Source of the DNA: an uncultured Acidobacteriota bacterium
GTDB lineage: Bacteria; Acidobacteriota; JAQAZP01
DNA: 64,000 bases
Assembly: GCA_963836075.1 (NCBI GenBank)
Contig: CAWIIB010000009.1
Location: 3,330,442 to 3,394,441 of the forward strand
Direction of reading: 5' to 3'
Of the stretch, positions 2,680 to 43,679 are shown in pieces; position 1 is the stretch's first letter, and each line of letters opens with the position of its first letter. Position numbers and translations under genes: made by a program. The notes below the pieces were generated by a model that was not told where the DNA came from, searched no databases, and was given only the letters and a program-made list of their open reading frames with translations.

Positions 2680-5600
2680 TCATGGCGCGTAGGTCGTCAC
2701 CACCTGCAGGCTGGTGTCCGTATCACCCGCCGGCGCGTACGGCGGAAAGTTGTATGGCGGCGGTGTCACGTCCTCGGCCACCAGGCGAAAGCGATTCTCG
2801 CCGATCACCGTGGCCAGGGCCGGGATGTTCTGCATCCAGCTGGTGGTATAGTTCTCACCGGGGGAGAGGTTGGTATAGCCGGCTCGCCAATTCGGGAAGT
2901 AGGACTTGTTGGCCAGGACCACGTCGATGCGCGCCGCCATCCGCCGGGTCTGCTCGCTGTGGTTGTTTACCAGGGAGATCGACATCAGGGTGCTGAAGGG
3001 CACTGTTCCAACCGAAGGCACCGAGGTGATCGTGGCCGAGATCGTGGGGGGCAGGGCGTGGCACAGTTCCAGGTGGCTCGGTTCCATGCCCCAGTTTTCC
3101 ATGAACGGGTTCTCAGCGGGCGGCGAGATGGCGGTAGAGGTCATGGTGTAGCCGCCGCCGGGCGGGTACTGGTCCGAGGTGATCAGCGTCTCGCTGCTGA
3201 ACAGGTAGCAGTTTCTCACCATGCCGTCTCTGTCGGTGTGTGCCACGAACGCCTGCACACTGGACGAACCGAAGCTGGTCGTGGACCCGGCAGCGGCAAA
3301 GCCGTCCTCGTGGACCACCAGGGCTTCGAAATTGTCTTCGCCGCCACTACCGATCCGGTGGGCCCAGAGTGCTTGCCCCTCACTGTCGAAACGGCAGAGT
3401 AGGGCGTCATTTGTCGCTCCCCGTACCTGACTGATCCTCCCGCATCCCACCACATCGCCGTCCCCGGTCGGCTTCAGGTCGTAAAGACTTTCGTAGTTCG
3501 ATGTCTCCGCTGTGCGGAACCACTGGCGGGTGCCGTTGCCGGCCAGCTTGACCAGCAGGATGTCGGTGTCGCCGTAGCTGTTGGTGTGACCGCCGAGCAG
3601 CAGGTCGCCACCCGACAGTTCAACTATGCCGTAAAACCTGTCGACACCGGCGCTCCCCGACTGAGAGCACCAGGTGAAGCTGCCGTCATCCTCCATGCGA
3701 ACGGCGATGGCATCCTGGTCGCCACCGTCCGGGTTGGAGTAGCCGGCAATCACCGATCCTCCGCCGCTGAGCGCTATGCCCCGGAGGCCCACTTCGTTCT
3801 GCGCTGTACCCAGCGTCCGCACGGACGGCACGGTGCCGGCGGATGTCAACTCCACCGCCAGCAGGTCGAACAGCCCTTCACCGTAGCTGTCGGTGTTGCC
3901 CACAGCCAGGTAGTTCCCGTCGGATTTCCGGTGGATCGACCAGAGCCGGTCGAACTGGGTGCCGCCGGTGACCGAGGTCCAGAGCACGGCGCCGCCGGAG
4001 TCGAAGCGCATCATCAGCGCATCATCCAGGCCGGCGCCGTAGGTGCTCGTGTATCCCACCACAATGCATCCGCCGTCGTCGGTGACCAGCAGGTCACGGG
4101 GGATTTCATCGTACATGCCGCCGGCTTCCCTGGCCCATTCCAGATCGCCCAGGGCGTCGTATTTGAGCAGCAGCACATCGGTGTTGTAGATACCCACCCA
4201 GGACTGGGTGGCCACGAGGTAGCCCTGGTCAGGGGTTTGCCCTATGGCATCGGCCCAGTCCGGGTCGTCGCGGCCGCTGGCCACCAGCCAGTATTCGGGG
4301 TCCAGGGGTTCATAATCGCATAGGGAATCCCAGTAGAAATACGGATTGACGGCGGTGGTGGTGTAAGCCTGTTCGCCCAGGGTCACCGGGGAGACAGCGA
4401 GGGTCACCGCGGACCAGGCCGGCGTTTGCAGCGGTGAGTAGGTGTCCCAGGTGCGGATGTGGGGGCACCCCGGAACCTGACCGTTGGCGTCCACCGCCGC
4501 CAGTATCGTATCCTGTTCGCCCGTGCCGAAGGGGGTCCTGGTGCCGGCCAGCAGATAGCCCCCGCCAGGCCGGTTGTGTACCTGGCCGGCACGCTCGAAG
4601 CCGTCATCCCCCAGGATACGGACCCACTGCAGACCGCCCACGTCGTCGAAGTCGATCAGCAGGACGTCCTCTAACACGCCGCCGTCGTCACTATCGCCGC
4701 ACACCATGAATCCGCCCCCCTCTCGAAGGGCCAGGGTTTCTCCGCTCTCATCCACGCCCGCGTCGCCCAGGGAGCGGGCCCAGTAGAGCGTTCCATTGGC
4801 GCCGAACCGGGCCACCAGGACATCCTTGGTGCCGGAGGGGTCGTAGTCCTGGGTGGCACCGGAGGCGAAAAAATCACCATTTGGTGCTTCCACGGCATCG
4901 AACAGATAGGAGTAGCCGACATCATCCCCCACCACCGTGGTCCAGGAGACCGTGGTTGTGTCGGCGAACTTGATCAGCAGGCCCTGGGCGTGTGTGGCGA
5001 AACTGCTCGACCAGCCGGTGGCGATGAAGCCGCCATCACTGGTGGCGCTGAAGGACCGGAGGATATCGTTGCTCGAGTCGCCGACGACGGTGGTCTGGAT
5101 CAAATCACCGGTGAAGTCGAACTCCAGCAGCAACACATCGACACTGCCCGGTCCGTATCCGGATCCGTGCGCACCGACGGCCAGGGTGTCGTCGGTGGTG
5201 AGGCAGATGCCCGCAGGGTAGATGGCGGCAGAGCTGCCGGCAAGACGGGTCCACTGGATCGTGCCGTTGGTGTTGTATCTCACCAGCAGAACCCGTGGTT
5301 CTTCTTCACCCAGGACTTCGGTCTTGCCCACCGCCACGAAGGTCCCGTCGGGCAGCTCACAGACGGCTGTGTAAAAGTCGTTCCCCCCGAGGTTCAGAGC
5401 GGAGGCCCAGACCAGGTCCCCCTCGGCATCGTGTCTCATCAGGTGGGCATCAAAGAAATTTCCGGCGGAATTCCAACTGTATCCGGCCACCACCGAGCCG
5501 CCGTCAGCGGTCACGATCATATCCATCGCGTAATCGTAGTCGGGGCCTCCTCCATAGTCGAGGAACAGGTGGTCCCCATCGGCCCGGCTTTTTCCATGGA

Positions 5601-5775
5601 GGCCAGCTGCATATTCCGCGGTGACGTCTCTGGACTGAACGTCCACGTGGTGAACCGCTGTCTCCACATCCACGGATCGTGTCTGGAAATCTGCTGCGGA
5701 AACCGCGGCAGGAGCGGTAACGGCCAAAAGGGCAGTGAGGAAAACAGACAGAACGATGATGTGTTTCCGGATCAT
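2680..5775 (-). CDS. secreted beta-propeller repeat protein (delta-60/SBBP-like repeats) with shared C-terminal domain
   Basis: Signal peptide MIRKHIIVLSVFLTALLAVTAPAAVSA with RBS AGGAG upstream of ATG 5775; repeated ...DGG.VVAGYS...LVRYN.NG... units; C-terminal ~100 aa similar to C-termini of 9488..10723 and 55010..57958. Confidence 0.6.
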   Translation of the reverse strand: MIRKHIIVLSVFLTALLAVTAPAAVSAADFQTRSVDVETAVHHVDVQSRDVTAEYAAGLHGKSRADGDHLFLDYGGGPDYDYAMDMIVTADGGSVVAGYSWNSAGNFFDAHLMRHDAEGDLVWASALNLGGNDFYTAVCELPDGTFVAVGKTEVLGEEEPRVLLVRYNTNGTIQWTRLAGSSAAIYPAGICLTTDDTLAVGAHGSGYGPGSVDVLLLEFDFTGDLIQTTVVGDSSNDILRSFSATSDGGFIATGWSSSFATHAQGLLIKFADTTTVSWTTVVGDDVGYSYLFDAVEAPNGDFFASGATQDYDPSGTKDVLVARFGANGTLYWARSLGDAGVDESGETLALREGGGFMVCGDSDDGGVLEDVLLIDFDDVGGLQWVRILGDDGFERAGQVHNRPGGGYLLAGTRTPFGTGEQDTILAAVDANGQVPGCPHIRTWDTYSPLQTPAWSAVTLAVSPVTLGEQAYTTTAVNPYFYWDSLCDYEPLDPEYWLVASGRDDPDWADAIGQTPDQGYLVATQSWVGIYNTDVLLLKYDALGDLEWAREAGGMYDEIPRDLLVTDDGGCIVVGYTSTYGAGLDDALMMRFDSGGAVLWTSVTGGTQFDRLWSIHRKSDGNYLAVGNTDSYGEGLFDLLAVELTSAGTVPSVRTLGTAQNEVGLRGIALSGGGSVIAGYSNPDGGDQDAIAVRMEDDGSFTWCSQSGSAGVDRFYGIVELSGGDLLLGGHTNSYGDTDILLVKLAGNGTRQWFRTAETSNYESLYDLKPTGDGDVVGCGRISQVRGATNDALLCRFDSEGQALWAHRIGSGGEDNFEALVVHEDGFAAAGSTTSFGSSSVQAFVAHTDRDGMVRNCYLFSSETLITSDQYPPGGGYTMTSTAISPPAENPFMENWGMEPSHLELCHALPPTISATITSVPSVGTVPFSTLMSISLVNNHSEQTRRMAARIDVVLANKSYFPNWRAGYTNLSPGENYTTSWMQNIPALATVIGENRFRLVAEDVTPPPYNFPPYAPAGDTDTSLQVVTTYAP

Positions 5776-5965
5776 GGTGGGCAAGCTCCTGTGGAAGAAG
5801 ATTGGTTGGGATCTATTCAAATTTTCCTCGGAGGGTCGACGGGAAAACGAGACGAGAAAAAACCTATGAGGAAAATGTAAGTTCTGACGTGGGCTTTGTC
5901 AAGGCGAGGAGATGAAACAGGTTTTTGCATGCAACAAAAGGTGCCTGCCCCATTCTGTTGCGTTT

Positions 5966-6934
5966 TCAGCAGGAGTGGTGGACCGTGGTGAAGGGGATGA
6001 CCAGCGGGAAGCGGTCGGACAGTTCCTCCACCAGGCGGTGCTGTTCACCAGGGGCGGTGAGGGCAATGACAGCCCCGCCGCCGCCTGAGCCGGTGAGCTT
6101 GGCCCCCAGGACGCCTTTCTGCCGGCGCAGCAGGGCAGTGGCCCGGTCGAGTTCAGGCGTGGAGACACCCAGTTGAGCCAGCAGCTCGTGGTTGCGGTTC
6201 ATCAGCTCGCCGGTTTTGGCCAGGTTGCCGGAGACCAGAAGGCTGCTCGCCTCTTCCGCAATCCGGCCGATTTCATTGAGCAATCCCTTGACCAGCCGTT
6301 CGTCCAGGACCAGGTTCTGGCGCACCCTGCGCACCTGCTCCAGGGTGGAGGCTCCAGGTTCGACGATACCGATCAGGCCCGACGGCGGGGTGGGGATGCG
6401 GAGGGGCAGGATTTCCCGCGGGGGCCCCTTGCGAAACCGGAGCACGCCATCGGCCAGCACGGTGGCGGCGTCCATGCCGCTGGGGTTGCCGTGAAAGATC
6501 GATTCCAGCTGCTGCACGTCGTCGAAGAGCGTGCTCTCGCTGTCGCTCTCCTCATGTCCGGCATGGCGGCGCAGGGCCTTGCAGACCCCGGCGGAGAATG
6601 CCGCCGAAGAACCGAGACCCATACCCACCGGCAGGTCCGACTCCACCTCCAGGGCGATGGGCTCCTGTTCCAGGTTGTAGATCGAGAGGCCCTGCTGCAC
6701 CGCCCGGGAGAAGAGATCGAAGCTCGACTCCGGTTCGGTCTCGCCGAAATACTGCTTGAACCGCGGGCGGACCAGCCGCGGCCCCCGGGGATCGTGGCTC
6801 ACCCGGATGCGCATTCCGATGTCGATGGGGGCGGCGATGCCGGGATGGCCGTAAACCGTGGCGTGCTCGCCAAAGAGAATCAGCTTCCCCGGAGCCGGTA
6901 CCTCGAAGGGCAGGTTGGCCTGATTTCTGTTCAT
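5966..6934 (-). CDS. mvk: mevalonate kinase (GHMP kinase family)
   Basis: Motifs APGKLILFGEHATVYG and PVGMGLGSSAA typical of mevalonate kinase. Confidence 0.8.
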   Translation of the reverse strand: MNRNQANLPFEVPAPGKLILFGEHATVYGHPGIAAPIDIGMRIRVSHDPRGPRLVRPRFKQYFGETEPESSFDLFSRAVQQGLSIYNLEQEPIALEVESDLPVGMGLGSSAAFSAGVCKALRRHAGHEESDSESTLFDDVQQLESIFHGNPSGMDAATVLADGVLRFRKGPPREILPLRIPTPPSGLIGIVEPGASTLEQVRRVRQNLVLDERLVKGLLNEIGRIAEEASSLLVSGNLAKTGELMNRNHELLAQLGVSTPELDRATALLRRQKGVLGAKLTGSGGGGAVIALTAPGEQHRLVEELSDRFPLVIPFTTVHHSC

Positions 6935-6941
6935 TGGGCGT

Positions 6942-8018
6942 TTACGATTCGTGCCATCCCTTGGCGGAGAGCCAGCGGAACAGTTCCCCGGTGTAGACCC
7001 GGGGCGCCCGCTTCAAGGCAGCGAGGTCTCCGGCCCCGGTGAGCACCATGGCGTTTTTCAACTCACGAATCACCCGGTCCACATACTGGTCCGCGCCGTG
7101 GACGCCCCCTTCGCGGTAGGCGAGGAACACCGAGCGGGCAAAACCGACCAGGTCGGCGCCGGCGGCGATGGCCCGTGCGGCGTCGAGACCGGTGATGATC
7201 CCCCCGGCGCCGATGATGCAGGTGCCGGGACGGCAGGTCCTGCGGGCGGCGATGATGCTGAAAGCGGTGGGAATGCCCCAGTCGGCAAAGGTACCGGCGA
7301 TCTGCCTCGAGGAGTCGTCAACTTCGCGGTGCATCTCCACCTTGGTCCAGGAGGTGCCCCCGGCCCCGGCCACATCGATGCAGGTGACCCCGGCCCGGTC
7401 GAGCATGGCCAGGGTCTCAGGGCTCATTCCTGCGCCGGTCTCCTTGACCAGTACCCTGCCGGGGATGCGTTTGACCAGCTTTTCCAGAGCGTTGAGGATT
7501 CCGCCGAAGTTGCAGTCCCCCTCGGGCTGCACCAGCTCCTGGGCCGGGTTGAGGTGGATGCAGATGGCGTCGGCCTCGATCTGTTCCTTGAGCCCGGCGA
7601 TGGCGGCGGTATCGTATTCCAGCAACTGGGCCCCGCCGATGTTGCCCAGCAGTACCGACTCGGGGATGTGACTGCGCACGGCGAAGTCGGTGAGCGCCTC
7701 GGGGTGGTCGAGGATCACCCGCTGGCTGCCCACCCCGAACCCGATGCCATGCTCGGCGGCCACGGTGGCCAGATCACGATTCATCGCCCCGGCCAGCTCG
7801 GTGCCGCCGGACATGCTGGTGATCAGCAGCGGGGCCCTGAGCTTCCGCCCGAAGAACTCCACCGATGTGTCCACACTGTCCAGGTCGATTTCGGGCAGGG
7901 CCTGGTGGAACAGCCGCACGTGCTCCAGCAGGGTGGTGGACGCGTGGGCCACCGGTTCCTCGGCCACGATCCGCAGGTGATCGGCCTTTCTCGTCCTGAT
8001 TTGATGGTCCCTGGCCAT
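6942..8018 (-). CDS. fni: isopentenyl-diphosphate delta-isomerase type 2 (FMN-dependent)
   Basis: TIM-barrel IDI-2-like sequence over full length (…LLITSMSGG…GFGVGSQR…VKETGAGMS…IDVAGAGGTSW…IGAGGI…); adjacent to mvk. Confidence 0.8.
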   Translation of the reverse strand: MARDHQIRTRKADHLRIVAEEPVAHASTTLLEHVRLFHQALPEIDLDSVDTSVEFFGRKLRAPLLITSMSGGTELAGAMNRDLATVAAEHGIGFGVGSQRVILDHPEALTDFAVRSHIPESVLLGNIGGAQLLEYDTAAIAGLKEQIEADAICIHLNPAQELVQPEGDCNFGGILNALEKLVKRIPGRVLVKETGAGMSPETLAMLDRAGVTCIDVAGAGGTSWTKVEMHREVDDSSRQIAGTFADWGIPTAFSIIAARRTCRPGTCIIGAGGIITGLDAARAIAAGADLVGFARSVFLAYREGGVHGADQYVDRVIRELKNAMVLTGAGDLAALKRAPRVYTGELFRWLSAKGWHES

Positions 8019-8202
8019 GTCTCCTCGACTGAAAAGTTATATCCGAAAGATGTTAGAACATTTTTCCAGTCTGTCAAGGAATTCCTGTGCTGCCGAGCCT
8101 GTCCGGCAACCTGTCCGGGCCCCACTCGTCCCCGTCGGCCACCGAAGAAAACTTGACCCCGTATAAGGAAAGACCTACACTTTCCAAAATGGAGGGCGAG
8201 CC

Positions 8203-9468
8203 ATGAACACTCTTCTGCGCCACCTTCTCCCTTTCGTTATCGTTGCGGTACTACTTACATTCTGTTCCGGTTTGTCGGCCCTGGCCCACCCCTGGCTCTT
8301 CGAGGCGAGGATGGACTTTTTTGCCAACGATGAACCGGGAGGCATCGCCCATGGCGATTTCGATGCCGATGGTGCCGTCGATCTGGCGGTGACCAATTAC
8401 GGATTGGAAACGATCACGATTTTCTTGGGCAAGGGGGACGGCACCTTCGATGAGCTGGGAGTATACGTCGTGGGGCACGAACCCTCATCGCTGGCCGCCG
8501 GGGACCTGAACGGCGACGGCCGGCCGGACCTTGCGGTATCCATGACATCTCCAGGATCGGTGCATGTTCTGCTGGGCAATGGTGACGGCACCTTCCAGGA
8601 TGCCGTGCCCTACGGGACCGCTTCCGGCACGTATTGCGTGGTCATCGCCCACCTGGACTCCGATACGATTCCCGATCTGGTCACATCCAATTTTTACGAG
8701 GACTCTGTTTCCGTCTTTCTGGGCAACGGGGATGGAACATTCGAACATCTGGGAGACCAAGGCGCCGGTGACGGTCCCGCGTGGGTGGCCGTGGACGATT
8801 TTGACGGTGACGGGGATTCCGATCTGGTTACGGCCAATGCCTTTGCCCACACTGTCCGCATTCTCCTGGGAAACGGAGACGGCAGTTTCCAGGCCGGCGC
8901 GGCCTACCAGGCTGGAAGCGACCCGAGGTCGGTGGCTGTGGGCCTGTTCAACGATGACAGCCACCCGGACCTGGTGGCGGCCAATCACCAGTCGGACTAT
9001 CTCTCGCTGTTTCTGGGCAACGGTGATGGTACGTTCCAGCAGGCAATACAGATCGATTCCCACTTCAACATCCGTTCCCTCTCCGTTTCCGACCTTGATG
9101 AGGATGGTCATCAGGACCTGGTGACGGCAAATGTTGGAGACGATACGATCTCGGTGATGGCCGGCAACGGAAACGGCACTTTCGACGCGGCTGTGGACTA
9201 CCGTACCGCCGAAGCCCCGTTGGACGTTGCGGTCGTGGACCTGGACGGTGACGGAATGTCCGATCTCAGTGTGGTGAACTTCTGGAGTGACAACATCTCG
9301 ACATTCAGGGGTAACGGGGACGCCACCTTTGTTGTGCCGTTCTCCATCGAGGTCCATGAACATCCCTGGTCGGTGGCCGCTGCAGATTTCAACGGCGACT
9401 CCATCCTCGACCTGGTGTCCGGCTCCGGGGTAGAGAGTTTGATCTCAGGTCCTGCTGGGATACGGTGA
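8203..9468 (+). CDS. FG-GAP/VCBS repeat protein, N-terminal part with signal peptide
   Basis: RBS GGAGGG before ATG; signal peptide MNTLLRHLLPFVIVAVLLTFCSGLSALA; repeated units ...DLNGDGRPDLAV...VLLGNGDGTFQ... Confidence 0.7.
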   Translation: MNTLLRHLLPFVIVAVLLTFCSGLSALAHPWLFEARMDFFANDEPGGIAHGDFDADGAVDLAVTNYGLETITIFLGKGDGTFDELGVYVVGHEPSSLAAGDLNGDGRPDLAVSMTSPGSVHVLLGNGDGTFQDAVPYGTASGTYCVVIAHLDSDTIPDLVTSNFYEDSVSVFLGNGDGTFEHLGDQGAGDGPAWVAVDDFDGDGDSDLVTANAFAHTVRILLGNGDGSFQAGAAYQAGSDPRSVAVGLFNDDSHPDLVAANHQSDYLSLFLGNGDGTFQQAIQIDSHFNIRSLSVSDLDEDGHQDLVTANVGDDTISVMAGNGNGTFDAAVDYRTAEAPLDVAVVDLDGDGMSDLSVVNFWSDNISTFRGNGDATFVVPFSIEVHEHPWSVAAADFNGDSILDLVSGSGVESLISGPAGIR

Positions 9469-9487
9469 CGGCACCTTCCAGACTCCC

Positions 9488-10723
9488 GTGGACTATTCCG
9501 TGGGCGAAGAGCCGCAATCGATCGCCGTACGTGATCTGAACGGTGACGGCGCCCCTGATCTGGTCACCGCCAACTACGACTCTGACGACCTGTCGGTGCT
9601 GCTGGGCAATGGTGACGGAACATTCCAGTCCGCGGTGGCGTACCAGGTCGGTAACGGTCCCGAATCGGTGGCCGCCGGCGACCTGGATGGTGACGGCATT
9701 CCCGACCTGATGGCGGCCAACAAGTACACCGACGATGTATCGGTGCTGCGGGGCAATGGTGACGGCACGTTTCAGGCCGCGGCATCGTTTCCAGCCGGTG
9801 ATTCGCCAGGCGGAATGGCCGCCGGCGACCTGGACGGCGACGGGGCTCTCGACCTGGGCGTGGCCACGATGGATGGCCTCGCCGTGCTTGCGGGGAATGG
9901 TGGGGGGGCATTTGGGAACCCCGTGTTCTACCCGGCAGGCCCGGACCCCTCCGCCGTGGTCATCGGCGATTTTGATGAGAACGGCATCCCGGACCTGGCG
10001 GTGACCAACTACGAGAGCGACTATATTTCAATGTTTCTGGGTGTCGGTGACGGCACCTTTCAGGCCGCCATGAACCACGCGGTGGGCGACAAGCCCTATG
10101 CCATTGTCGCCGGCGATCTGGACGGGGACTTTCACCTCGACCTGGCGGTGGGGAACATCATCAGCAACAATGTCGCCGTCCTGCCGGGCCACGGTGACGG
10201 CACCTTCGGCGACGTCTTGTTCTACGGTGCCGGATCCGGTCCTCCGACCCTCGCCATCGGAGACTTTGACCGGGATCGCCACCTCGACCTGGTTTCACCA
10301 TCCACCGCCGACAGTCACCTTGAGCTGCTCTTCAACACCACCGGCCTGGTCAAGGGCACCATCTGTGCCGGCCTGGACTGCACACCGTCCTGGGGCACAC
10401 TGCCGTTCCCCGTCACCATGTCGGTGAGGGTGGACAACCTCTATCCCGGGCAGACCCGGCAGTTCGACGCCCGGATCCACGCCACCCTGGCCAGCGGCCA
10501 GTCCATTTACAGCTGGAAGGAGGGGTACCTGAACATCGCCGGCGGCTCCAGCCACACCGTATCCTGGACCCAGGGCTTTCCGCTGCACGACTCCCTGGTG
10601 GGCGAAAACCTCTTCATTCTGGGGACCGAGGATGTCACCCCCACACCCTTCAACCAGCCACCCTACCCGCCGGCCGGGGACAAGTGGGGGGATGACTGCA
10701 CGGTGACCGGCATGGCCCCATGA
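9488..10723 (+). CDS. FG-GAP/VCBS repeat protein, C-terminal part with shared C-terminal domain; probably same gene as 8203..9468 across a frameshift
   Basis: Same repeat unit continues in frame +2 from 9443 (SQVLLGYGDGTFQ...) directly after the stop of 8203..9468; C-terminus ...EDVTPTPFNQPPYPPAGD...CTVTGMAP. Confidence 0.65.
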   Translation: MDYSVGEEPQSIAVRDLNGDGAPDLVTANYDSDDLSVLLGNGDGTFQSAVAYQVGNGPESVAAGDLDGDGIPDLMAANKYTDDVSVLRGNGDGTFQAAASFPAGDSPGGMAAGDLDGDGALDLGVATMDGLAVLAGNGGGAFGNPVFYPAGPDPSAVVIGDFDENGIPDLAVTNYESDYISMFLGVGDGTFQAAMNHAVGDKPYAIVAGDLDGDFHLDLAVGNIISNNVAVLPGHGDGTFGDVLFYGAGSGPPTLAIGDFDRDRHLDLVSPSTADSHLELLFNTTGLVKGTICAGLDCTPSWGTLPFPVTMSVRVDNLYPGQTRQFDARIHATLASGQSIYSWKEGYLNIAGGSSHTVSWTQGFPLHDSLVGENLFILGTEDVTPTPFNQPPYPPAGDKWGDDCTVTGMAP

Positions 10724-10825
10724 ACCGGCGATTGACTGCATGTCGGCGGTGACATATCCTTCAGTTGCTGTTTTTCCACTCGATCTACAACGGGATCAGA
10801 TTGTTACGGATCGCGAAGGAGGACC

Positions 10826-12106
10826 ATGACGCTCAAGTCATTTCTCGGCCTGGTGGATGAACGTTCCCTGCTGACAAGGGTCTCCCGGCCGGTGGATGTG
10901 CGTTACGAGCTGGCCGCGGTGGCCGGCCGTCTGGGTGAGAAACCGGTTCTGTTCAGCCAGGTAAAAGGCCATGACATGCCGGTGGCGGCCAATGTCTGTG
11001 CCAGCCGGGAACTGGTCTGTCTGGGCCTGGGTGTCTCCGCCGGCAACCTGGTGCCGCGGATGATCGAGGCCATCGACCACCCCCGGGAGCCGGAGGTGGT
11101 GCAGGCCGAGGGATACGAGGAGCGTGCGGCAGACCTCTCGGCGCTGCCGATCCTGACCTACTACCCGCGGGACGGGGGCCCCTATATCGCCTCCGGCATC
11201 ATTTTCTGCCAGGACCGGGAACTGGGTCTCAACGCCTCCTACCACCGGGCCATGGTCATCGGCGAGGACCGGCTGGCGCTGCGGATCCTGCCCCGCCACC
11301 TGCACCAGTACATGGAGCGGGGCCTCACCGAGTTCGCCTTCTGCATCGGCAACACCATCCCGGTGCTGGTGGGTGCGGCCATGTCGGTGGAACTGGACAA
11401 GAGTGAGCTGGCCATTGCCAACGCCCTGCAGCACACGGAGGCGGTGAAACTGGAGGGCCATCTGATCCCGCAGAGCGAGCTGGTGCTGATCTGCGAGTTC
11501 ACCGGTGAGCAGGCTGACGAGGGGCCGTTCCTCGACCTCACCGAGACCTTTGACATCGTGCGCAAGCAGCCGGTGGCCCGGGTGAAAAAGGTGTTCGCCC
11601 GGCCCGATTCGGTCTATCATGCCCTGCTCCCCGGCGGTCCGGAGCACAAGATCCTGATGGGCATGCCGCGGGAGCCGACCATTTTCAGGGAGGTGTCCCG
11701 GTATTGTGACTGCCTGGATGTCCGGATCACGCCTGGTGGCTGCTCCTGGCTCCACGCCGCGGTGAAAATCCGCAAGCAGGACGGTCTTGACGGCAGGCGG
11801 GCCATCGAGGCCGCCTTTGCCGGGCACAGTTCCATGAAGCATGTCTTCGTGGTGGACGAGGACATTGACATCGACGATCCGCATGCTCTGGAGTGGGCTC
11901 TGGCCACCCGTTTCCAGGGGGACCGGGACCTGGTGGTGCGGCCCGGGGAAAAGGGCTCCTCGCTGGACCCGTCGGCCGATCCGGAGACCCGGGAGACCAC
12001 CAAACTCGGTTTTGACCTGACCATCCCCGCCGGGGGGGCGCCGGAGAAGTTCCTGCGTCCCGAGCCCCCGGTGAAAGTGGACCTCGAGGACTACCTGGAG
12101 AACTGA
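10826..12106 (+). CDS. UbiD-family decarboxylase; candidate trans-anhydromevalonate 5-phosphate decarboxylase
   Basis: ~426 aa, RBS AAGGAGGA; UbiD-like length and sequence character; clustered with AcnX-like pair and isopentenyl phosphate kinase. Confidence 0.65.
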   Translation: MTLKSFLGLVDERSLLTRVSRPVDVRYELAAVAGRLGEKPVLFSQVKGHDMPVAANVCASRELVCLGLGVSAGNLVPRMIEAIDHPREPEVVQAEGYEERAADLSALPILTYYPRDGGPYIASGIIFCQDRELGLNASYHRAMVIGEDRLALRILPRHLHQYMERGLTEFAFCIGNTIPVLVGAAMSVELDKSELAIANALQHTEAVKLEGHLIPQSELVLICEFTGEQADEGPFLDLTETFDIVRKQPVARVKKVFARPDSVYHALLPGGPEHKILMGMPREPTIFREVSRYCDCLDVRITPGGCSWLHAAVKIRKQDGLDGRRAIEAAFAGHSSMKHVFVVDEDIDIDDPHALEWALATRFQGDRDLVVRPGEKGSSLDPSADPETRETTKLGFDLTIPAGGAPEKFLRPEPPVKVDLEDYLEN

Positions 12107-12113
12107 CCGAACC

Positions 12114-13301
12114 ATGGAACTGAGCAGGGAACAGCAGCGGCTGCTGGACGGCGAGCAGGGAGAGGTGACCTCCCGCCTGATGCGCCTGCTGGTCAGCCTG
12201 GGTGAGATCTTCGGGGCCCGGCGGATGGTGGATGTGGGCTCGACCCAGGTGTCCGGCGTGTCGTACAAATCGATCGGCGAGCCGGGGCTGGAGTTCCTTG
12301 AGGACCTGGCCCGGGAGGGCGTGCAGGTGAGAGTGCCCACCAGCCTCAACCCGGCCGGCATGGACCTCCAGGGCTGGCGGGAACTGGGTATCCCCGAAGC
12401 CTTTGCCGTGAAACAGCAGCGGATCATGGCCGCCTTTGGCGCCATGGGGATCACCGCGCCGCCCACCTGCACCCCCTACCTCATCGGCAGCGTCCCCCAA
12501 CCCGGCGAGCACGTGGCCTGGGCCGAGAGCTCGGCGGTGATCTTTGTCAACTCGGTGCTGGGGGCGCGGACCAACCGCGAGGGCGGCCCGTCGGCCCTGG
12601 CCGCGGCGGTCTGCGGCTGCACCCCCTGCTACGGCCTGCACCTCGACGAAAACCGGCGGCCCACGGTGCTGGTGGAGGTGGACGCCCGTCTCGAATCCAA
12701 CGCCGACTACGGCGCCCTGGGCTACTGCCTGGGCCGCAAGGTGCGCGGGGCCATCCCCTTCATCACCGGGATCGAAGCGGCCGGCAGGGACAACCTCAAG
12801 TCGTTCGGCGCGGCCATGGCGGCCAGCGGAGCGGTGGCCCTGTACCACGCTCGGGGGGTGACTCCCGAGGCGCCGGAGATGCCCACCGCCGGCCTGGAGC
12901 GGATCAAGGTGGGGCAGGGCGAGCTGGACACGCTGGCCGCCGGTCTCGATGCCGGGGAGACCCCCGACCTGGTGGTCACCGGCTGTCCCCACGCCTCGCT
13001 GGAGGAGGTGGCCGCGGTGGCCGGGCAGGTCCGCGGACGGACGCTCCGTGTGCCGGTCTGGGTCTGCACCTCCCGGGTGATCAAGGAGCGGGCGGAGAGC
13101 GAGGGCTACCTGGCCCGGATCGAGGCCGCCGGCGGACGTATCGTGGCCGACACCTGTATGGTGGTCTCACCGCTGGAGGAGCTGGACTACGGGGTCACCT
13201 CGGTGGACTCGGGCAAGGCAGCCAACTACCTCCCCGGGTTCTGCCGGCAGAAGGTGAACTTCCGCGACCTTCACGACATCATCGAGGAGGTGCTGGAATG
13301 A
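12114..13301 (+). CDS. aconitase X catalytic subunit-like (DUF521); candidate phosphomevalonate dehydratase large subunit
   Basis: ~395 aa; start 8 nt after UbiD-like stop; ATGA overlap with following small-subunit gene. Confidence 0.6.
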   Translation: MELSREQQRLLDGEQGEVTSRLMRLLVSLGEIFGARRMVDVGSTQVSGVSYKSIGEPGLEFLEDLAREGVQVRVPTSLNPAGMDLQGWRELGIPEAFAVKQQRIMAAFGAMGITAPPTCTPYLIGSVPQPGEHVAWAESSAVIFVNSVLGARTNREGGPSALAAAVCGCTPCYGLHLDENRRPTVLVEVDARLESNADYGALGYCLGRKVRGAIPFITGIEAAGRDNLKSFGAAMAASGAVALYHARGVTPEAPEMPTAGLERIKVGQGELDTLAAGLDAGETPDLVVTGCPHASLEEVAAVAGQVRGRTLRVPVWVCTSRVIKERAESEGYLARIEAAGGRIVADTCMVVSPLEELDYGVTSVDSGKAANYLPGFCRQKVNFRDLHDIIEEVLE

Positions 13302-13681
13302 AGGGCCGGACCATCATGACCGGCAGGGCTGAAGGCCGGGCGCTGGTTTCGCGGACGCCGATCAGTTTCTACGGCGGGGTTGACGCCAAAACCGGGATGA
13401 TCATCGAGCAGGGGCACGAACTGGAGGGGCAGTGTCTCAGCGGCACGATCCTCGTCTTCCCCTGCGGCAAGGGCTCCACCGTGGGCTCCTACGTGATCTA
13501 CGGCCTGCAGAAGAACGGCGTGGCCCCGCTGGCCATCGTCAACGAGGAGACGGAGACCATCATCGCCACCGGCGCCATCCTCGCCGGGATTCCCTGTGTG
13601 GACGGGGTCGACATCAGCGGCATCAGCAGCGGCGACAGACTGCGGGTGGACGGCGCCGCCGGCCTGGTGGAAAAGGACTGA
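13298..13681 (+). CDS. aconitase X swivel subunit-like (DUF126); candidate phosphomevalonate dehydratase small subunit
   Basis: ~127 aa, translationally coupled to the preceding gene; ...LVFPCGKGSTVGSYVIYGL... Confidence 0.55.
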   Translation: MKGRTIMTGRAEGRALVSRTPISFYGGVDAKTGMIIEQGHELEGQCLSGTILVFPCGKGSTVGSYVIYGLQKNGVAPLAIVNEETETIIATGAILAGIPCVDGVDISGISSGDRLRVDGAAGLVEKD

Positions 13682-13688
13682 ACCGGAG

Positions 13689-14471
13689 ATGGGACAGCAA
13701 CTGGTTTTCGTCAAGCTGGGCGGGTCGCTGATCACCGACAAGACGAAGCCGTACACCGCCAGGCCTGAAGTGATCGCCCGGGCGGCGTCCGAGATTCACC
13801 GGGCGCGGAACAAGGCCGGTCTGGCCCTGCTGGTGGGCCACGGCGGCGGCAGCTTCCCCCATGTCAGCGCCGCAAAGTACCGGATTCACAAGGGAGCCTC
13901 CGATGCCCGGGGCTGGGAGGGTTTTGCCAGGGTGCAGGCCGATGCGGCGCGACTGAACCGCATGGTTGTTTCGGCGCTGCTGGAAGCCGGGGAACCGGCC
14001 ATCTCCGTCCAGCCTTCGGCGGCCTGCCTGGCCCGGGACCGCCGTCTGGAGCGCTGGGATGGCCAGGCGCTGGAGCAGTGCCTGGCCCGGGGCCTGGTGC
14101 CGGTACCTTACGGCGATGTCTGTTTTGACGAGGCCCGGGGCTGCTGCATCCTCTCCACCGAGGAGATCTTCCGCTTTCTCGCTCCGCGGCTCCGACCTGC
14201 GCGGATCATCATGGCCGGCAAGACCGACGGCGTGCTGGACGAGGAGGGGAACACCGTCCCCGAGCTCACCCCCGCGGACCTCGGTCGAATGAAGAGTGCA
14301 CTCTCCGCCTCGGACGGCGTGGCCGACGTCACCGGCGGCATGGTGCACAAGGTGGAGAGGGCCCTGGAGACCGGTGTGGCCACCCTGATCATCAACGGCC
14401 TGCGGCCCGGGGAACTGGAGAAGGCCCTCCTCGGCCGCCCGGTGGCCGGCACGCTGGTCACCCGCGGCTGA
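13689..14471 (+). CDS. isopentenyl phosphate kinase (amino-acid kinase family)
   Basis: N-terminal MGQQLVFVKLGGSLITDK nucleotide-binding motif; ...VGHGGGSF...; ~260 aa. Confidence 0.7.
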   Translation: MGQQLVFVKLGGSLITDKTKPYTARPEVIARAASEIHRARNKAGLALLVGHGGGSFPHVSAAKYRIHKGASDARGWEGFARVQADAARLNRMVVSALLEAGEPAISVQPSAACLARDRRLERWDGQALEQCLARGLVPVPYGDVCFDEARGCCILSTEEIFRFLAPRLRPARIIMAGKTDGVLDEEGNTVPELTPADLGRMKSALSASDGVADVTGGMVHKVERALETGVATLIINGLRPGELEKALLGRPVAGTLVTRG

Positions 14472-14481
14472 CAGCGCAGGA

Positions 14482-15549
14482 TCACTGCGGCCGCAACTCC
14501 TCGATGACCGACGCGTCCACCCAGTAGACGTCCGAGTTTCCGTTGCGCGGCTGGCCGTGACTCTGCAGGAACTCCTTGTAGCTCCGGCCGCCGTCCGTGG
14601 AGTCCTTTTCCGTCCCCCGGTTGGAGGCGAAGAAGAGATACCTGCCGTCGGGGGACAGGCTGGCCGAAACCACCCGGTTCCCCGGGGTGTTGAACTTCTC
14701 ACCCATGTTCAGCGGACCGGTCCAGCTGTCGTCCTCGGCGCGGAACGAGATGTAGTAGTCGGCCAGCCCGATGGCGTCCTCCCGGCCGGCCATGCCGTAG
14801 ATGAGGAAACGCTCGTCCGGATCGATGAAGGCGTTGAACTGGGTGTCTCCGGCGTTCACTTCGGCCGGCAGGGCCACCGCCGCCAGATACGCCCCGTCCA
14901 CCATCCTGGAGCGGAAGATCAGGTTCCGCGTCTTCCCCTCTTCTTCCACATCGCGGGTGAAGTAGATATTTCCCTCCCTGGTGGTGGAGGGGAAGAACTC
15001 CGCCGCCTCGCTGTTCACCGGCGGTCCGAGGTTGTAGGGTTCGCTCCAGCCGTCGGCGGTGCGGTCCATGGCCCAGATGTCCTGGTCGTGCCACCCGGGT
15101 GTCGGTTCGGTGCCGTCTCCGGGCCGGGTGGAGAGGAAGAGAAACCGTGAGCCGTCCGGTGTGATGTGCGGTTCGAGGTCGTAGATCGCCGGGTGGCTGG
15201 AAAAGCCGGCGATCTCCGGCTCGGTCCACCTGCCGTCCACCTGGCGGCTGACCACCAGCGCCACCTGGTTGCGGGCCATCAGGCCGAAGTAGAGCTCCTT
15301 GCCGTCCGGAGTGATGACCACGTCCCGTTCGTAGAGACCGGTGGAGAGGATCCCCGGGGCAAAGAGCTGCGGTTCCAGGCCCGGGGGCTCCTGCCCCAGG
15401 TAGTCCCCCTCCAGAACGGGGAAGGCCGTGGGACAGCATGCGCTGTCCGCGTTGACGGCGTCCTCCGAGGCCGGGGGTGAACCGCAGTGCCATGCTGAAA
15501 GCCCGAGCACCAGGATCAGGGAAACAGTGCGGTAAATCCGTGCATTCAT
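14482..15549 (-). CDS. secreted PD40/WD40-like beta-propeller repeat protein (TolB-like)
   Basis: Signal peptide; repeated ...ITPDGKELYF..., ...ITPDGSRFLFLS..., ...SPDGRYLFFASNR... units. Confidence 0.65.
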   Translation of the reverse strand: MNARIYRTVSLILVLGLSAWHCGSPPASEDAVNADSACCPTAFPVLEGDYLGQEPPGLEPQLFAPGILSTGLYERDVVITPDGKELYFGLMARNQVALVVSRQVDGRWTEPEIAGFSSHPAIYDLEPHITPDGSRFLFLSTRPGDGTEPTPGWHDQDIWAMDRTADGWSEPYNLGPPVNSEAAEFFPSTTREGNIYFTRDVEEEGKTRNLIFRSRMVDGAYLAAVALPAEVNAGDTQFNAFIDPDERFLIYGMAGREDAIGLADYYISFRAEDDSWTGPLNMGEKFNTPGNRVVSASLSPDGRYLFFASNRGTEKDSTDGGRSYKEFLQSHGQPRNGNSDVYWVDASVIEELRPQ

Positions 15550-15662
15550 GATGACCTCTAAGCGTTGTGGAGATCGTTGCTGATGGACAAACGCGTACGG
15601 CCCCGCGCCGCACGTTTCTTGCTAGCAACTATACAACGGGTTGGCCGGGCGTGCCCTTTTTG

Positions 15663-16562
15663 TCAGCCGATAAAGATGCCGATGGCCATCAGAATCGGCG
15701 TGGCAATCACAATGATCACGTTGCGGCCCAGGAAGGGCACCAGCTCGGGTATGGATGTGGCGTACCTGGCCGCGCCTCGAGCCGTTGGGATGGCGAGGAG
15801 CAGTGTGCCCAGACCCAGCAGGGCGAAGGGTGGAAGTTGCCGGAGGACCACACCGAGGACGATGGAGAGATAGGCCAGGGCGAGGAACGTGATGTAGACC
15901 CGGACCGCGGCCGGGACGCCCCAGGCGATGGGCAGGTGGTGCCGGCCCACTTCACGATCGGCATCTACATCGGGGAACTGGTTGATCAGCAACAGGTTGC
16001 TGACCAGGAAAAAGGGGACCAGCGAGGCGATGAATGAGGGCCAGTTGTAAGTCCCGGTGAGGGCGAAGTGTGTGCCCATCACCATCAGCGGCCCGAAGCC
16101 GAGACCCGGGGCGATGAGGCAGATCAGGGGGCTGCGGGTGATCCAGCGGGTGTAGAGGACGATGACCAGCAGGCCCAGCAGACCGAGGGGAATGATCCCC
16201 CAGCCGCGGAGGATGGTGAAATAGACGCCCACCGATACGGTGAACAAAGCCGAGGCCACCCCGGTGAGCAGGGCCACGTGGGCCTGCCCCGGGTTGCCGG
16301 GCAGGGCGCCGCTGCCGCCGCTGAACGGCGTGCGCTCGGTCTTCATGTCGAGGCCGGTGCGAAAGTCGTCGAACTCGTTCAGGGCGTTTACGCTGATGTG
16401 TGCCGCCACGGCACCGGCGAGGGCCATAATCACCGGCAGCGGTGAGATGGAGGCGCCGCTCCAGACCGCGGTGGCCACGCCCGCCAGCACGCAGGCCGGG
16501 GTGAGGATCAGAAAAGGCAGGCGCATCGGCCCGAACAGGGGGCTGGGAGCGGCGTCGGTCAT
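15663..16562 (-). CDS. UbiA-family prenyltransferase (integral membrane)
   Basis: Multi-pass hydrophobic profile; Asp-rich motif ...NALNEFDDFRTGLD... and second ...DVDADRE... typical of UbiA/MenA/DGGGPS-type enzymes. Confidence 0.7.
   Translation of the reverse strand: MTDAAPSPLFGPMRLPFLILTPACVLAGVATAVWSGASISPLPVIMALAGAVAAHISVNALNEFDDFRTGLDMKTERTPFSGGSGALPGNPGQAHVALLTGVASALFTVSVGVYFTILRGWGIIPLGLLGLLVIVLYTRWITRSPLICLIAPGLGFGPLMVMGTHFALTGTYNWPSFIASLVPFFLVSNLLLINQFPDVDADREVGRHHLPIAWGVPAAVRVYITFLALAYLSIVLGVVLRQLPPFALLGLGTLLLAIPTARGAARYATSIPELVPFLGRNVIIVIATPILMAIGIFIG

Positions 16563-41993: not shown

Positions 41994-43679
<1,686 letters not shown>

Follow-up and report, generated by a model that had tools for sequence, protein, structure and literature searches.

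Introduction

The archaeal pathway of Aeropyrum pernix and Methanosarcina mazei, as outlined in papers that cite the original work (Hayakawa et al., 2018, cited in PMC10040528; PMC12547664), proceeds from mevalonate with mevalonate kinase (MVK), a heterodimeric AcnX-type dehydratase with a three-Cys [4Fe-4S] cluster, a UbiD-family decarboxylase, isopentenyl phosphate kinase (IPK), and IPP isomerase. In the searchable literature the route is reported in bacteria from Chloroflexota only (PMC13001223, citing Kanno et al., 2024). The species concerned is Candidatus Promineifilum breve (Kanno et al., 2024, cited in PMC13001223, PMC12547664), the only documented bacterial case, which is attributed to archaeal gene transfer. 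The haloarchaeal-type pathway of haloarchaea and Chloroflexi combines a phosphomevalonate decarboxylase with IPK (Dellas et al., 2013, described in PMC6107057). In that description the final steps, isopentenyl phosphate followed by IPK, are the same, but the decarboxylase is a GHMP-family ATP-dependent enzyme for which there is no gene in the stretch of DNA analyzed here.

That stretch, a 64-kb chromosomal segment hereafter termed the window, very probably encodes, in a bacterium, the lower half of the 'archaeal' mevalonate pathway, which proceeds through trans-anhydromevalonate phosphate. From mevalonate onward the set of enzymes matches that outlined for A. pernix and M. mazei, and the UbiD-AcnXL-AcnXS gene order is that of many archaeal loci. 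The locus differs from the A. pernix and M. mazei pathway in its bacterial host, in MVK and IDI-2 proteins of bacterial classical-MVA descent (25–26 and 40–42% identity, respectively, to the versions in archaeal clusters), and in the lack of a linked UbiX gene. Compared to the Chloroflexota case, both the phylum and the acquisition are different: identities to the window proteins are 40–46% for UbiD, 47–54% for AcnX-L, and 46% for IPK, and neighbor-joining analysis places the window genes for these proteins in a well-supported clade of their own, with a pair of archaeal contigs as its sister.

Organization of the Locus

The pathway genes occupy positions 5966–14471, with MVK and IDI-2 encoded on the minus strand and the UbiD-family decarboxylase, both AcnX subunits, and IPK on the plus strand. 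The outer limits are the stop codons of the MVK (5966) and IPK (14471) genes. The features of the region are as follows.

5966..6934, minus strand: MVK, 322 aa (TIGR00549, 209.6 bits versus a cut-off of 163)
6942..8018, minus strand: IDI-2, type 2 IPP:DMAPP isomerase, 358 aa (TIGR02151, 351.1 bits versus 281)
8019..8202: promoter-like hexamers in the divergent intergenic region (consensus match only)
8203–9468 and 9488–10723, plus strand: two FG-GAP/VCBS repeat genes (PF13517, 200 and 154 bits)
10732..10760, plus strand: promoter-like site 5′ of the UbiD-AcnXL-AcnXS-IPK unit (consensus match only)
10826..12106, plus strand: UbiD-family decarboxylase (TIGR00148, 300.2 bits versus 245; all three Pfam UbiD domains)
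12114..13301, plus strand: AcnX-L, putative phosphomevalonate dehydratase large subunit, type IIb, 395 aa (PF04412, 522 bits)
13298..13681, plus strand: AcnX-S, small (swivel) subunit, 127 aa (PF01989, 119.5 bits; NF003046, 173.1 bits versus 163)
13689..14471, plus strand: IPK, 260 aa (NF040647 IPPK_Arch, 184.5 bits versus 120)
15663..16562, minus strand: UbiA-family prenyltransferase, 299 aa (PF01040, 92 bits)

Matches of the six pathway genes had E-values of 1e-29 to 1e-157, which rules out chance, and five of the six passed curated equivalog cut-offs. The exception, AcnX-L, passed the Pfam AcnX model only. An earlier sequence-only reading of this DNA had named the six genes with exact outer coordinates, as the HMM scores and the two stop codons bear out, and the AcnX, UbiD, and IPK families were matched in the HMM assignments (PF04412, PF01989, TIGR00148, NF040647). 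That gene list omitted, however, the two FG-GAP repeat genes at 8203–10723. The slot that the latter occupy is empty in two relatives (L001, L081), and contains a gene for a 1420-aa hybrid histidine kinase in L083-85 and for an 842-aa protein in L092; the first FG-GAP gene also has deviant codon usage (GC3 0.69). The FG-GAP/VCBS genes are passengers in a variable slot without a role in the pathway.

The MVK gene starts 7 nt from the stop codon of the IDI-2 gene which is located upstream. As the successive junctions between the UbiD, AcnX-L, AcnX-S, and IPK genes comprise a 7-nt gap, a 4-nt overlap (ATGA), and a second 7-nt gap, translation of these four genes is likely to be coupled, and the pathway genes probably form two divergent expression units, IDI2-MVK and UbiD-AcnXL-AcnXS-IPK. 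A consensus scan of positions 5500–17300 detected five promoter-like sites compared to 1.4 ± 1.2 in shuffled sequences, each of which is a consensus match only. The intergenic hexamers lie at 8077..8050 on the minus strand for IDI2-MVK and at 8153..8181 on the plus strand for the first FG-GAP gene, and the site at 10732..10760 consists of TTGACT, a 17-nt spacer, and TATCCT.

The flanking genes encode a sigma-54 response regulator, a histidine kinase, EttA, Uup, an ECF sigma factor, and YtxJ. The bacterial context proposed previously is thereby upheld, in particular by the sigma-54 activator, EttA, and the ECF sigma factor. The closest labeled relative of the window chromosome is a genome bin that its submitter named Acidobacteriota.

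Mevalonate Kinase, IPP Isomerase, and Isopentenyl Phosphate Kinase

The MVK protein possesses the GHMP motifs PGKLILFGEHA, GMGLGSSAA, NPSGMD, and KLTGSGGGGA. Its nearest outgroups are HMGR-MVK fusion proteins with 52–59% identity, among which those of the classical bacterial operons show 57–59%, compared to 25–26% for the MVKs of archaeal clusters. For the IDI-2 protein, identity is 56% to its counterpart encoded ahead of the HMGR-MVK fusion in bacterial loci L093 and L094, versus 40–42% for IDI-2 of archaeal clusters. On these affinities, MVK is of the bacterial classical-MVA lineage. The classical operons (L093, L094, and the Zixibacteria bin L091) share the order of IDI2 followed by MVK, whereas the window is devoid of the HMGR domain to which MVK is fused in the outgroups, of diphosphomevalonate decarboxylase (DMD), and of phosphomevalonate kinase (PMK), and instead bears the dehydratase, UbiD, and IPK module.

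The IPK assignment made from the sequence is confirmed by matches to the solved IPK structures 3ll9 (131 bits) and 3k4o (122 bits) and to the archaeal IPK equivalog model. The protein retains the Gly-rich KLGGS motif and the GHGGGSFPH motif, including the His residue, and is 58–60% identical to IPKs of archaeal clusters and 46% identical to an Anaerolineae IPK. The start codon most likely is, as in every relative, the ATG at 13689 (N-terminus MGQQLVFVKLGGS) and not the GTG at 13596.

Proposed Pathway and Its Role

In the proposed pathway, MVK would phosphorylate mevalonate and the AcnX-L/AcnX-S heterodimer would dehydrate mevalonate-5-P to trans-anhydromevalonate-5-P, which the prenylated-FMN-dependent UbiD-family enzyme would decarboxylate to isopentenyl phosphate. 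IPK then would generate IPP which IDI-2 would equilibrate with DMAPP, at a cost of two ATP per IPP versus three. The enzyme activities are predictions, whereas the identities of the genes, their catalytic and substrate-binding residues, their synteny, the selection on them, and their phylogenetic affinities were observed directly. The route from mevalonate-5-P through trans-anhydromevalonate-5-P and isopentenyl phosphate to IPP had been proposed previously, and the AcnX residues, the UbiD group, and the IPK matches lend it support.

Mevalonate presumably is provided by HMGS and HMGR, and prFMN by UbiX, that are encoded elsewhere. Genes for thiolase, HMG-CoA synthase, and HMG-CoA reductase were not found in the 64-kb window. 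A UbiX (prFMN synthase) gene likewise was absent from the window and, in six close relatives, from the DNA up to 10 kb from the cluster. By contrast, the nearest relatives that do not belong to the window clade, archaeal and bacterial alike, encode UbiX inside the cluster.

The cluster was detected in at least seven related lineages with 66–95% amino acid identity on contigs of up to 0.59 Mb. The dN/dS ratios determined against L081 were 0.13–0.19 for all six genes, and codon usage of the pathway genes is that of the window background. The gene set is intact and under purifying selection. The neighboring UbiA gene is retained as well: every close relative has it next to the cluster, in many cases accompanied by a gene for a PLD-type protein. 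Identity is 83–90% in L002, L081, L083, and L086, and in L092 the UbiA gene that adjoins the cluster likewise encodes 299 aa. The best NCBIfam match of the prenyltransferase is to MenA, with a score of 93 bits that is far below the cut-off of 264, and the PDB search gave no match. The prenyltransferase possibly consumes the product of the cluster.

This retention of UbiA raises the tentative alternative that the same chemistry is an auxiliary source of IPP beside an MEP pathway and feeds a dedicated product, e.g., that of UbiA. In Streptomyces, mevalonate clusters that are attached to terpenoid gene clusters function in this auxiliary, product-dedicated manner. The homologous module in a 'Deltaproteobacteria' bin adjoins two squalene/phytoene-synthase genes, an amine oxidase gene, and a polyprenyl synthase gene; the cluster is without HMGR; and the MEP pathway is the route of most bacteria (PMC13001223). 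However, no MEP genes are present in the 64 kb, which weighs slightly against an auxiliary role. The cluster also is conserved vertically, shows strong purifying selection, and has a codon usage like that of housekeeping genes. Moreover, the IDI2, HMGR-MVK fusion, DMD, PMK operon of the nearest outgroups resembles a primary pathway.

It is unlikely that the genes instead compose a salvage or partial pathway in a cell without HMG-CoA reductase, which would use exogenous mevalonate or recycle isopentenyl phosphate and isoprenol. The precise absence of the HMGR domain of the outgroup fusion, with the IDI2 stop codon just 7 nt from the MVK start, is in accord with salvage, as are the lack of HMGS and HMGR genes in the window and the failure of low-powered, biased searches to find an HMGR of the window lineage, in one case among fragments of ≤320 aa and in the other among the matches listed. 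Nevertheless, MVK, the dehydratase (PMDh), and the decarboxylase (AMPD) all are under purifying selection and, therefore, a steady supply of substrate is indicated. Furthermore, upper-pathway genes are unlinked from lower ones in many archaea and bacteria.

The Dehydratase and the Decarboxylase

Among solved structures, AcnX-L best matched Thermococcus kodakarensis AcnX (7cnr_A, 337 bits), with the type I enzyme at 215 bits, and AcnX-S likewise had its best match in the T. kodakarensis enzyme (7cnr_B, 144 bits). Residues Cys119, Cys291, and Cys348 of AcnX-L correspond to C110, C283, and C342 of the T. kodakarensis (Tk) protein, the [4Fe-4S] Cys triad of phosphomevalonate dehydratase, and residues S60, T61, and V62 of AcnX-S to the catalytic Ser-Thr-Val of the Tk protein (S62, T63, V64). 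The three Cys residues would ligate the [4Fe-4S] cluster and small-subunit Ser60 would be the base. AcnX-L retains the MVA5P-binding residues G48, V49, S50, N79, E138, S139, S140, K368, and Y372, whose roles have been described (PMC8184944, PMC10040528), and the pair keeps every invariant MVA5P-contacting residue. T. kodakarensis AcnX type IIb (7CNR, 7CNS) and the A. pernix phosphomevalonate dehydratase have the same split subunits, Cys triad, and small-subunit catalytic Ser, and the same residues for binding of the carboxylate, hydroxyl, and phosphate groups (PMC8184944, PMC10040528). The window proteins differ from Tk at three second-shell positions, A47 to S, N53 to S, and L27(S) to Y, and archaeal orthologs share the window variants. 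The subunits previously termed AcnX-like thus appear to be of the phosphomevalonate dehydratase type, based on the Cys triad and substrate-binding residues.

The UbiD gene is located directly 5′ of that for AcnX-L, as in most archaeal and several Chloroflexota loci that were retrieved, and its product is 65–66% identical to UbiD of archaeal clusters L087 and L089. The motif E232-GPF-x-D237-LT-x-T-x-D243-xx-R246 is invariant in 50 AcnX-linked orthologs, as are residues N136, H140, R141, and E194. Membership in this AcnX-linked group supports the predicted place of the decarboxylase in the pathway. The protein also may be orthologous to the characterized AMPDs of A. pernix, M. mazei, and Ca. P. 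breve, although this link is indirect; the PDB copy that was searched contained no AMPD structure.

That AcnX and UbiD act on non-isoprenoid substrates, with the adjacency of MVK, IPK, and IDI-2 a coincidence, is highly improbable. The sole NCBIfam match of AcnX-L is to the hydroxyproline dehydratase model, and the best solved-structure match of UbiD is furandicarboxylate decarboxylase (HmfF), after which some homologs are named by JGI. However, the hydroxyproline dehydratase score of 293 bits is far below the cut-off of 700 and that assignment was rejected for the AcnX pair: the site-C Cys of the type I enzyme is absent from AcnX-L, in which V350 occupies the position, whereas the PMDh site-1 Cys is present and the residues that bind the phosphate of MVA5P are kept. 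Similarly, EGPFxDLTxTxDxxR in UbiD differs from EGPFGE in HmfF and does not vary among the AcnX-linked orthologs. The linkage of the genes, moreover, recurs in archaea and in three bacterial groups.

Origin of the Pathway Genes

The four core proteins (UbiD, AcnX-L, AcnX-S, and IPK) share 58–71% identity with their counterparts in clusters from archaeal contigs, on which TFIIB, Topo VI, and eIF-1A genes also are located. In a concatenated neighbor-joining tree, the only method used for the trees, the window clade is joined with Schekmanbacteria and the 'Deltaproteobacteria' bin (bootstrap 93) and this group joins the archaeal contigs (bootstrap 100); Chloroflexota are placed elsewhere. Although the nearest relatives of the core genes are archaeal and comparison with a second assembly reveals a few single-base errors in the window, the notion that archaeal DNA was fused artefactually to a bacterial contig during assembly or binning can be set aside, as the same junctions, flanked by bacterial genes, are present in at least seven independent assemblies (ENA, JGI, NCBI, Logan), GC content and codon usage resemble those of the flanks, and bacterial genes are located on both sides of and inside the cluster.

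The core genes are closest to archaeal clusters and those for MVK and IDI-2 to the bacterial operon and, therefore, the pathway is a mosaic. The archaeal origin raised for testing in the sequence-only reading holds for UbiD, AcnX-L, AcnX-S, and IPK, but not for MVK and IDI-2 which, judged by sequence affinity, derive from a classical bacterial operon. The ancestral operon would have comprised IDI2, an HMGR-MVK fusion, DMD, and PMK; an archaeal UbiD-AcnXL-AcnXS-(UbiX)-IPK module would have taken the place of DMD and PMK, with IDI2 and MVK as the survivors. The pathway itself already is known; the window would add a bacterial bearer outside Chloroflexota.

Results

The sequence-only reading had placed six genes of an archaeal-type alternative mevalonate pathway at 5966-14471. 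Profile searches recovered all six with exact coordinates, and the assignments proposed for AcnX, UbiD and isopentenyl phosphate kinase were each matched by family models (PF04412/PF01989, TIGR00148 and NF040647, respectively). Two FG-GAP repeat genes located among the pathway genes had been overlooked.

Genes of the cluster and their profile matches
5966-6934, minus strand: mevalonate kinase (MVK); TIGR00549 equivalog, 209.6 bits versus a cut-off of 163
6942-8018, minus strand: type 2 IPP isomerase (IDI-2); TIGR02151 equivalog, 351.1 bits versus a cut-off of 281.3
8203-9468 and 9488-10723, plus strand: two FG-GAP repeat genes, between IDI-2 and UbiD
10826-12106, plus strand: UbiD-family decarboxylase; TIGR00148, 300.2 bits versus a cut-off of 245; PF20695, PF01977 and PF20696
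12114-13301, plus strand: AcnX large subunit; PF04412, 522 bits
13298-13681, plus strand: AcnX small (swivel) subunit; PF01989, 119.5 bits; NF003046, 173 bits versus a cut-off of 163
13689-14471, plus strand: isopentenyl phosphate kinase (IPK); NF040647 (IPPK_Arch), 184.5 bits versus 120; PF00696, 102 bits

Spacings of 7 nt separate the stop codon of IDI-2 from the start of MVK, the stop codon of UbiD from the start of the AcnX large subunit, and the stop codon of the AcnX small subunit from the ATG of IPK. The two AcnX subunits are specified by separate tandem genes that overlap at ATGA. Translation of IPK most likely begins at the ATG at 13689, which gives 260 aa and is the start seen in all relatives, and not at the GTG at 13596. 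Promoter-like hexamers are present in both upstream intergenic regions at 8077..8050 (minus strand) and 10732..10760 (plus strand), and the region includes five such sites compared to 1.4 ± 1.2 in shuffled sequences, all of which are consensus matches only. The pathway genes appear to form two divergent transcription units that flank the inserted FG-GAP genes. Between the IDI2-MVK and UbiD-IPK units, the slot at 8203-10723 is a hotspot of gene turnover which, among relatives (loci L001, L081, L083 and L092), is empty or is occupied by two FG-GAP genes, by a gene for a 1420-aa hybrid histidine kinase or by one for an 842-aa protein. The first FG-GAP gene in the window has atypical codon usage (GC3 0.69).

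The flanking genes are bacterial and include those for a sigma-54-dependent response regulator and histidine kinase, a MATE transporter, an OmpA/PD40 protein, an ECF sigma factor, the tandem ABC-F proteins Uup and EttA (40056-43679, minus strand; 954 bits for EttA) and a bacillithiol-type YtxJ protein (43832-44167). The window has a gene for a UbiA-family prenyltransferase (15663-16562, minus strand), which adjoins the mevalonate cluster in every close relative; there, a gene for a two-domain PLD-type protein that is missing from the window usually lies next to it. The best match of the prenyltransferase was MenA at 93 bits versus a cut-off of 264, and the protein had no match in the PDB. This enzyme may be a consumer of the pathway product. 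The GC content of the window is about 65%, and neither tRNA genes nor matches to Rfam families were detected within its 64 kb.

The AcnX and UbiD families each cover several functions, and therefore the defining features of the proposed enzymes were tested. The best match of the AcnX large subunit among solved structures was the type IIb AcnX of Thermococcus kodakarensis (7cnr_A, 337 bits), and the small subunit matched 7cnr_B with 144 bits. In the type IIb layout, the large subunit comprises domains 1-3 and the small subunit domain 4. The hallmark of phosphomevalonate dehydratase is a set of [4Fe-4S] cysteine ligands at sites A, 1 and B, accompanied by a site C that lacks cysteine; the three ligands are C110, C283 and C342 in T. 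kodakarensis and C122, C297 and C356 in Aeropyrum pernix (PMC8184944, PMC10040528). In the window protein the three ligand sites are occupied by Cys119, Cys291 and Cys348 and site C by Val350, a pattern kept in 80-81 of the 81 orthologues collected. Most of the mevalonate-5-phosphate contacts in the T. kodakarensis structure 7CNS also are kept in the AcnX pair. Window positions 47 and 53 of the large subunit and 25 of the small subunit differ from A47, N53 and L27, respectively, of the T. kodakarensis proteins, and archaeal orthologues vary likewise.

Mevalonate-5-phosphate contacts of 7CNS kept in the AcnX pair
Large subunit, window numbering: G48, V49, S50, N79, E138, S139, S140, K368, Y372
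Large subunit, same contacts in a second numbering: G48, V49, S50, N79, E129, S130, S131, K361, Y365
Small subunit: S60, T61, V62 (window), equivalent to S62, T63, V64

The sole NCBIfam match of the large subunit was to hydroxyproline dehydratase (NF051439). Assignment to this enzyme entails a score above the model cut-off as well as a Cys-x-Cys arrangement in which sites B and C supply [2Fe-2S] ligands. The observed score of 292.6 bits is far below the cut-off of 700 and site C is occupied by valine, and this identity was rejected on these two grounds.

The window UbiD protein was compared with a copy of the PDB in which there was no anhydromevalonate phosphate decarboxylase (AMPD) structure. 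The best match was furandicarboxylate decarboxylase with 213 bits. The UbiD-AcnXL-AcnXS linkage also occurs in most of the archaeal loci and in several of the Chloroflexota loci that were fetched. In 50 AcnX-linked UbiD proteins, residues N136, H140, R141 and E194 are invariant, as is the motif E232-GPF-x-D237-LT-x-T-x-D243-xx-R246. Unlike these 50 proteins, the solved furandicarboxylate decarboxylase has EGPFGE. Synteny and the shared motif suggest that the window UbiD is an orthologue of the characterised AMPDs of A. pernix, M. mazei and Ca. P. breve. The IPK protein matched solved IPK structures (3ll9, 131 bits; 3k4o, 122 bits), and both its Gly-rich KLGGS sequence and GHGGGSFxH, which includes the conserved His of GxGGGSFxH, are invariant or near-invariant in 27 orthologues. 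Thus, the AcnX residues, the linkage and motif of UbiD and the IPK match support the interpretation as an alternative mevalonate pathway. The region probably specifies a functional anhydromevalonate-phosphate lower mevalonate pathway.

The UbiX protein was searched for separately. tblastn with three cluster-linked UbiX queries found no UbiX gene in the 64-kb window, and in six relatives the gene is likewise missing from the 10 kb to either side of the cluster. The closest relatives beyond the window clade, both archaeal and bacterial, bear UbiX inside the cluster, and the pathway that has been reconstituted contains a prFMN synthase (PMC12547664). As a UbiD enzyme requires prenylated FMN, a UbiX is presumably encoded elsewhere in the genome.

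The cluster was found in a series of related loci. The nearest labelled locus (L002), which derives from a bin named by its submitter as 'Acidobacteriota bacterium', displays 72-93% amino-acid identity, a range that takes in the pathway genes, the FG-GAP genes and the downstream PD40, UbiA and MATE genes. A second bacterial bin (L001) shows 83-95% amino-acid identity. Assemblies from ENA, JGI and Logan contain further relatives, whose contigs range in length from 72 kb to 0.59 Mb. The common layout is MVK-IDI2, the variable slot, UbiD-AcnXL-AcnXS-IPK, UbiA, MATE and the sigma-54 regulator. Values of dN/dS against the related locus L081 were 0.13-0.19 for all six pathway genes, and the codon usage of these genes is indistinguishable from that of the window background (distance 0.067-0.112 versus a window median of 0.099). 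The shared layout, dN/dS values and background-like codon usage therefore establish that the cluster is an old, vertically inherited and selected part of the chromosome of this lineage. A chimeric assembly is excluded as the layout recurs in the ENA, JGI and Logan assemblies of relatives. Recent transfer, or an island, similarly is excluded: codon usage and GC content match the background, and lineages with identities down to about 66% share the cluster.

A short-read assembly made independently from the same population (L090) matched window positions 1-8249 with 99.94% identity. The two differ by three mismatches and two single-base indels over 8.25 kb (255, 2234, 2740, 3168 and 7467), and GTAC is at or adjoins four of the five differences. 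In the window, an extra C at 2234 shifts the reading frame of a gene for a GT4 glycosyltransferase (405 aa and intact in L090), and the absence of an A at 2740 changes the C-terminal end encoded by the gene at 2680-5820. These differences look like motif-linked consensus error rather than real pseudogenes, with a possible methylation-related cause in a long-read assembly. Exact-sequence look-up revealed no entry on record for the AcnX large subunit; the exact sequence of the window MVK already is on record, on a contig of 3,516,849 bp.

Best matches to the window UbiD beyond its own clade share 60-66% identity and, where named, are labelled Aenigmatarchaeota, Hadarchaeales, Thermoplasmatota, Hodarchaeaceae, one 'Deltaproteobacteria' bin and Schekmanbacteria. 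Two of the best matches (L087 and L089) are located on contigs that are archaeal by content, with genes for TFIIB, ribosomal proteins L5e and L19e, Topo VI and eIF-1A. The gene order on both contigs is MVK-UbiD-AcnXL-AcnXS-UbiX-...-IPK-IDI2.

Identity of the window proteins to those of the archaeal contigs L087/L089 and of Chloroflexota
UbiD: archaeal, 65-66%; Chloroflexota, 40-46%
AcnX large subunit: archaeal, 59-62%; Chloroflexota, 47-54%
AcnX small subunit: archaeal, 70-71%; Chloroflexota, 57-58%
IPK: archaeal, 58-60%; Chloroflexota, 46%
IDI-2: archaeal, 40-42%
MVK: archaeal, 25-26%; Chloroflexota, 33% (locus L035 only)

A tree was built from concatenated UbiD, AcnX large subunit and AcnX small subunit sequences (920 columns) by neighbour-joining only with 100 bootstraps. 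The window clade was recovered with support of 100, and values for the successive addition of Schekmanbacteria, the 'Deltaproteobacteria' bin and the two archaeal contigs were 69, 93 and 100, respectively. Chloroflexota fell in a separate 11-taxon clade with other archaea (support 95). The 'Deltaproteobacteria' contig (L088) is bacterial by content, including a sigma-54 activator and a shikimate operon, and the Schekmanbacteria locus shares its UbiD-HAD-AcnXL-AcnXS-UbiX order. On L088 (JGI Ga0366820_1004287, 4909-16183), the UbiD-HAD-AcnXL-AcnXS-UbiX-IPK module lies downstream of the shikimate-pathway operon and is followed by genes for a sterol/cyclopropane-type methyltransferase, two squalene/phytoene synthases, an amine oxidase and a polyprenyl synthase, which suggests that this module is linked to squalene-type triterpenoid synthesis.

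The nearest outgroups of the window MVK are HMGR-MVK fusion proteins with 52-59% identity, one of which is from a Zixibacteria bin in which the gene for an MVD-like decarboxylase is next in line. Two long metagenome contigs carry an operon for IDI-2, an HMGR-MVK fusion, diphosphomevalonate decarboxylase (DMD) and a GHMP kinase that resembles phosphomevalonate kinase (PMK). These are the JGI contigs L093 (operon at 8097-13412) and L094. The IDI-2 proteins of these operons share 56% identity with that of the window and are the best outgroup among the matches listed. The fusion (769 aa) combines a class II HMGR with MVK, and among the matches listed the closest outgroup to the window MVK is the MVK half of this protein. 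The decarboxylase scored 264 bits with TIGR01240 versus a cut-off of 171. The window retains the same IDI2-then-MVK order, and the HMGR domain, DMD and PMK are missing. Overall, the archaeal origin that the sequence-only reading had raised for the set holds for UbiD, both AcnX subunits and IPK, on the basis of identities for all four and the neighbour-joining tree for the first three, whereas MVK and IDI-2 are closest to those of bacterial classical operons.

The remainder of the isoprenoid supply was examined also. Genes for thiolase, HMGS and HMGR were not found within the 64-kb window, nor were those for PMK, DMD, PMD or the MEP pathway. A protein search with the HMGR part of the HMGR-MVK fusion listed only fragments of ≤320 aa, none of which was on the contig that bears the exact window MVK, and a metagenome scan for the HMGR of the lineage included no window-clade contig among the 80 loci listed. 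A three-subunit 2-oxoacid:ferredoxin oxidoreductase is specified at 58048-60604 (minus strand); it would be consistent with life at low oxygen but is no proof of it.

Elsewhere in the window, a ten-gene block at 29944-39175 (plus strand) is accompanied by a dip in GC content to 0.535 at 28001-30000. Among the products of the block, those of 29944-31191 and 38345-39175 are ThiF/E1-like and have weak PADLOC matches to E1-E2 and BilD-like proteins; the others are a Prok-JAB/PRTRC-protein-A homologue (37440-38348), an AAA ATPase that contains a proteasomal-ATPase OB domain (34340-36127) and six proteins that lack a family match. The block looks like a ubiquitin-like conjugation cassette, which would be a defence system or else a PRTRC-type mobile element.

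Discussion

The chemistry and enzyme set of the cluster are those of the archaeal pathway of A. pernix and M. mazei. The trans-anhydromevalonate route is regarded as an archaeal hallmark, and its documented bacterial occurrences are confined to Chloroflexota (PMC6107057, PMC13001223), a case attributed to Kanno et al. 2024 as relayed in PMC13001223. No paper that connects Acidobacteriota, Schekmanbacteria or Deltaproteobacteria with phosphomevalonate dehydratase or AMPD was found in the searchable literature, outside of which lie the central paper of 2024 and one review of 2023. The chemistry is not new; instead, what is noteworthy is the occurrence in another bacterial lineage, the acquisition independently of Chloroflexota and the mosaic composition. 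In contrast to the Chloroflexota case, the window module resides in a separate clade to which archaeal contigs are sister, and in contrast to the archaeal pathway it is combined with bacterial MVK and IDI-2.

The most economical reading of the pathway is as a mosaic. [quoted passage not shown] A more extensive scenario is conceivable, albeit rather doubtful. In this non-Chloroflexota lineage labelled Acidobacteriota, the hybrid of bacterial IDI-2 and MVK with archaeal dehydratase, UbiD and IPK might be the sole source of isoprenoid precursors, with the module replacing the ATP-dependent DMD and PMK and using the UbiX of the host; it might reflect a second, independent archaea-to-bacteria transfer that was followed by spread across bacterial phyla (Schekmanbacteria and the 'Deltaproteobacteria' bin). 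The dehydratase is oxygen-sensitive and the route spares one ATP (PMC10040528, PMC12547664). If the scenario is true, it would represent a natural swap of a pathway module for a cheaper, oxygen-sensitive one.

The mosaic provides isoprenoid-evolution specialists and pathway engineers with material of use. The ATP-saving pathway is under engineering in Escherichia coli (PMC12547664), for which the cluster offers candidate bacterial enzymes with host-like codon usage (about 65% GC). The known distribution of the route is widened by an intact, selected pathway in another bacterial lineage and by similar modules in two more bacterial bins. The cluster also supplies a concrete case for the debate on the movement of mevalonate pathway variants between domains, and it shows a natural replacement of DMD and PMK by dehydratase, UbiD and IPK steps beside retained bacterial MVK and IDI-2.
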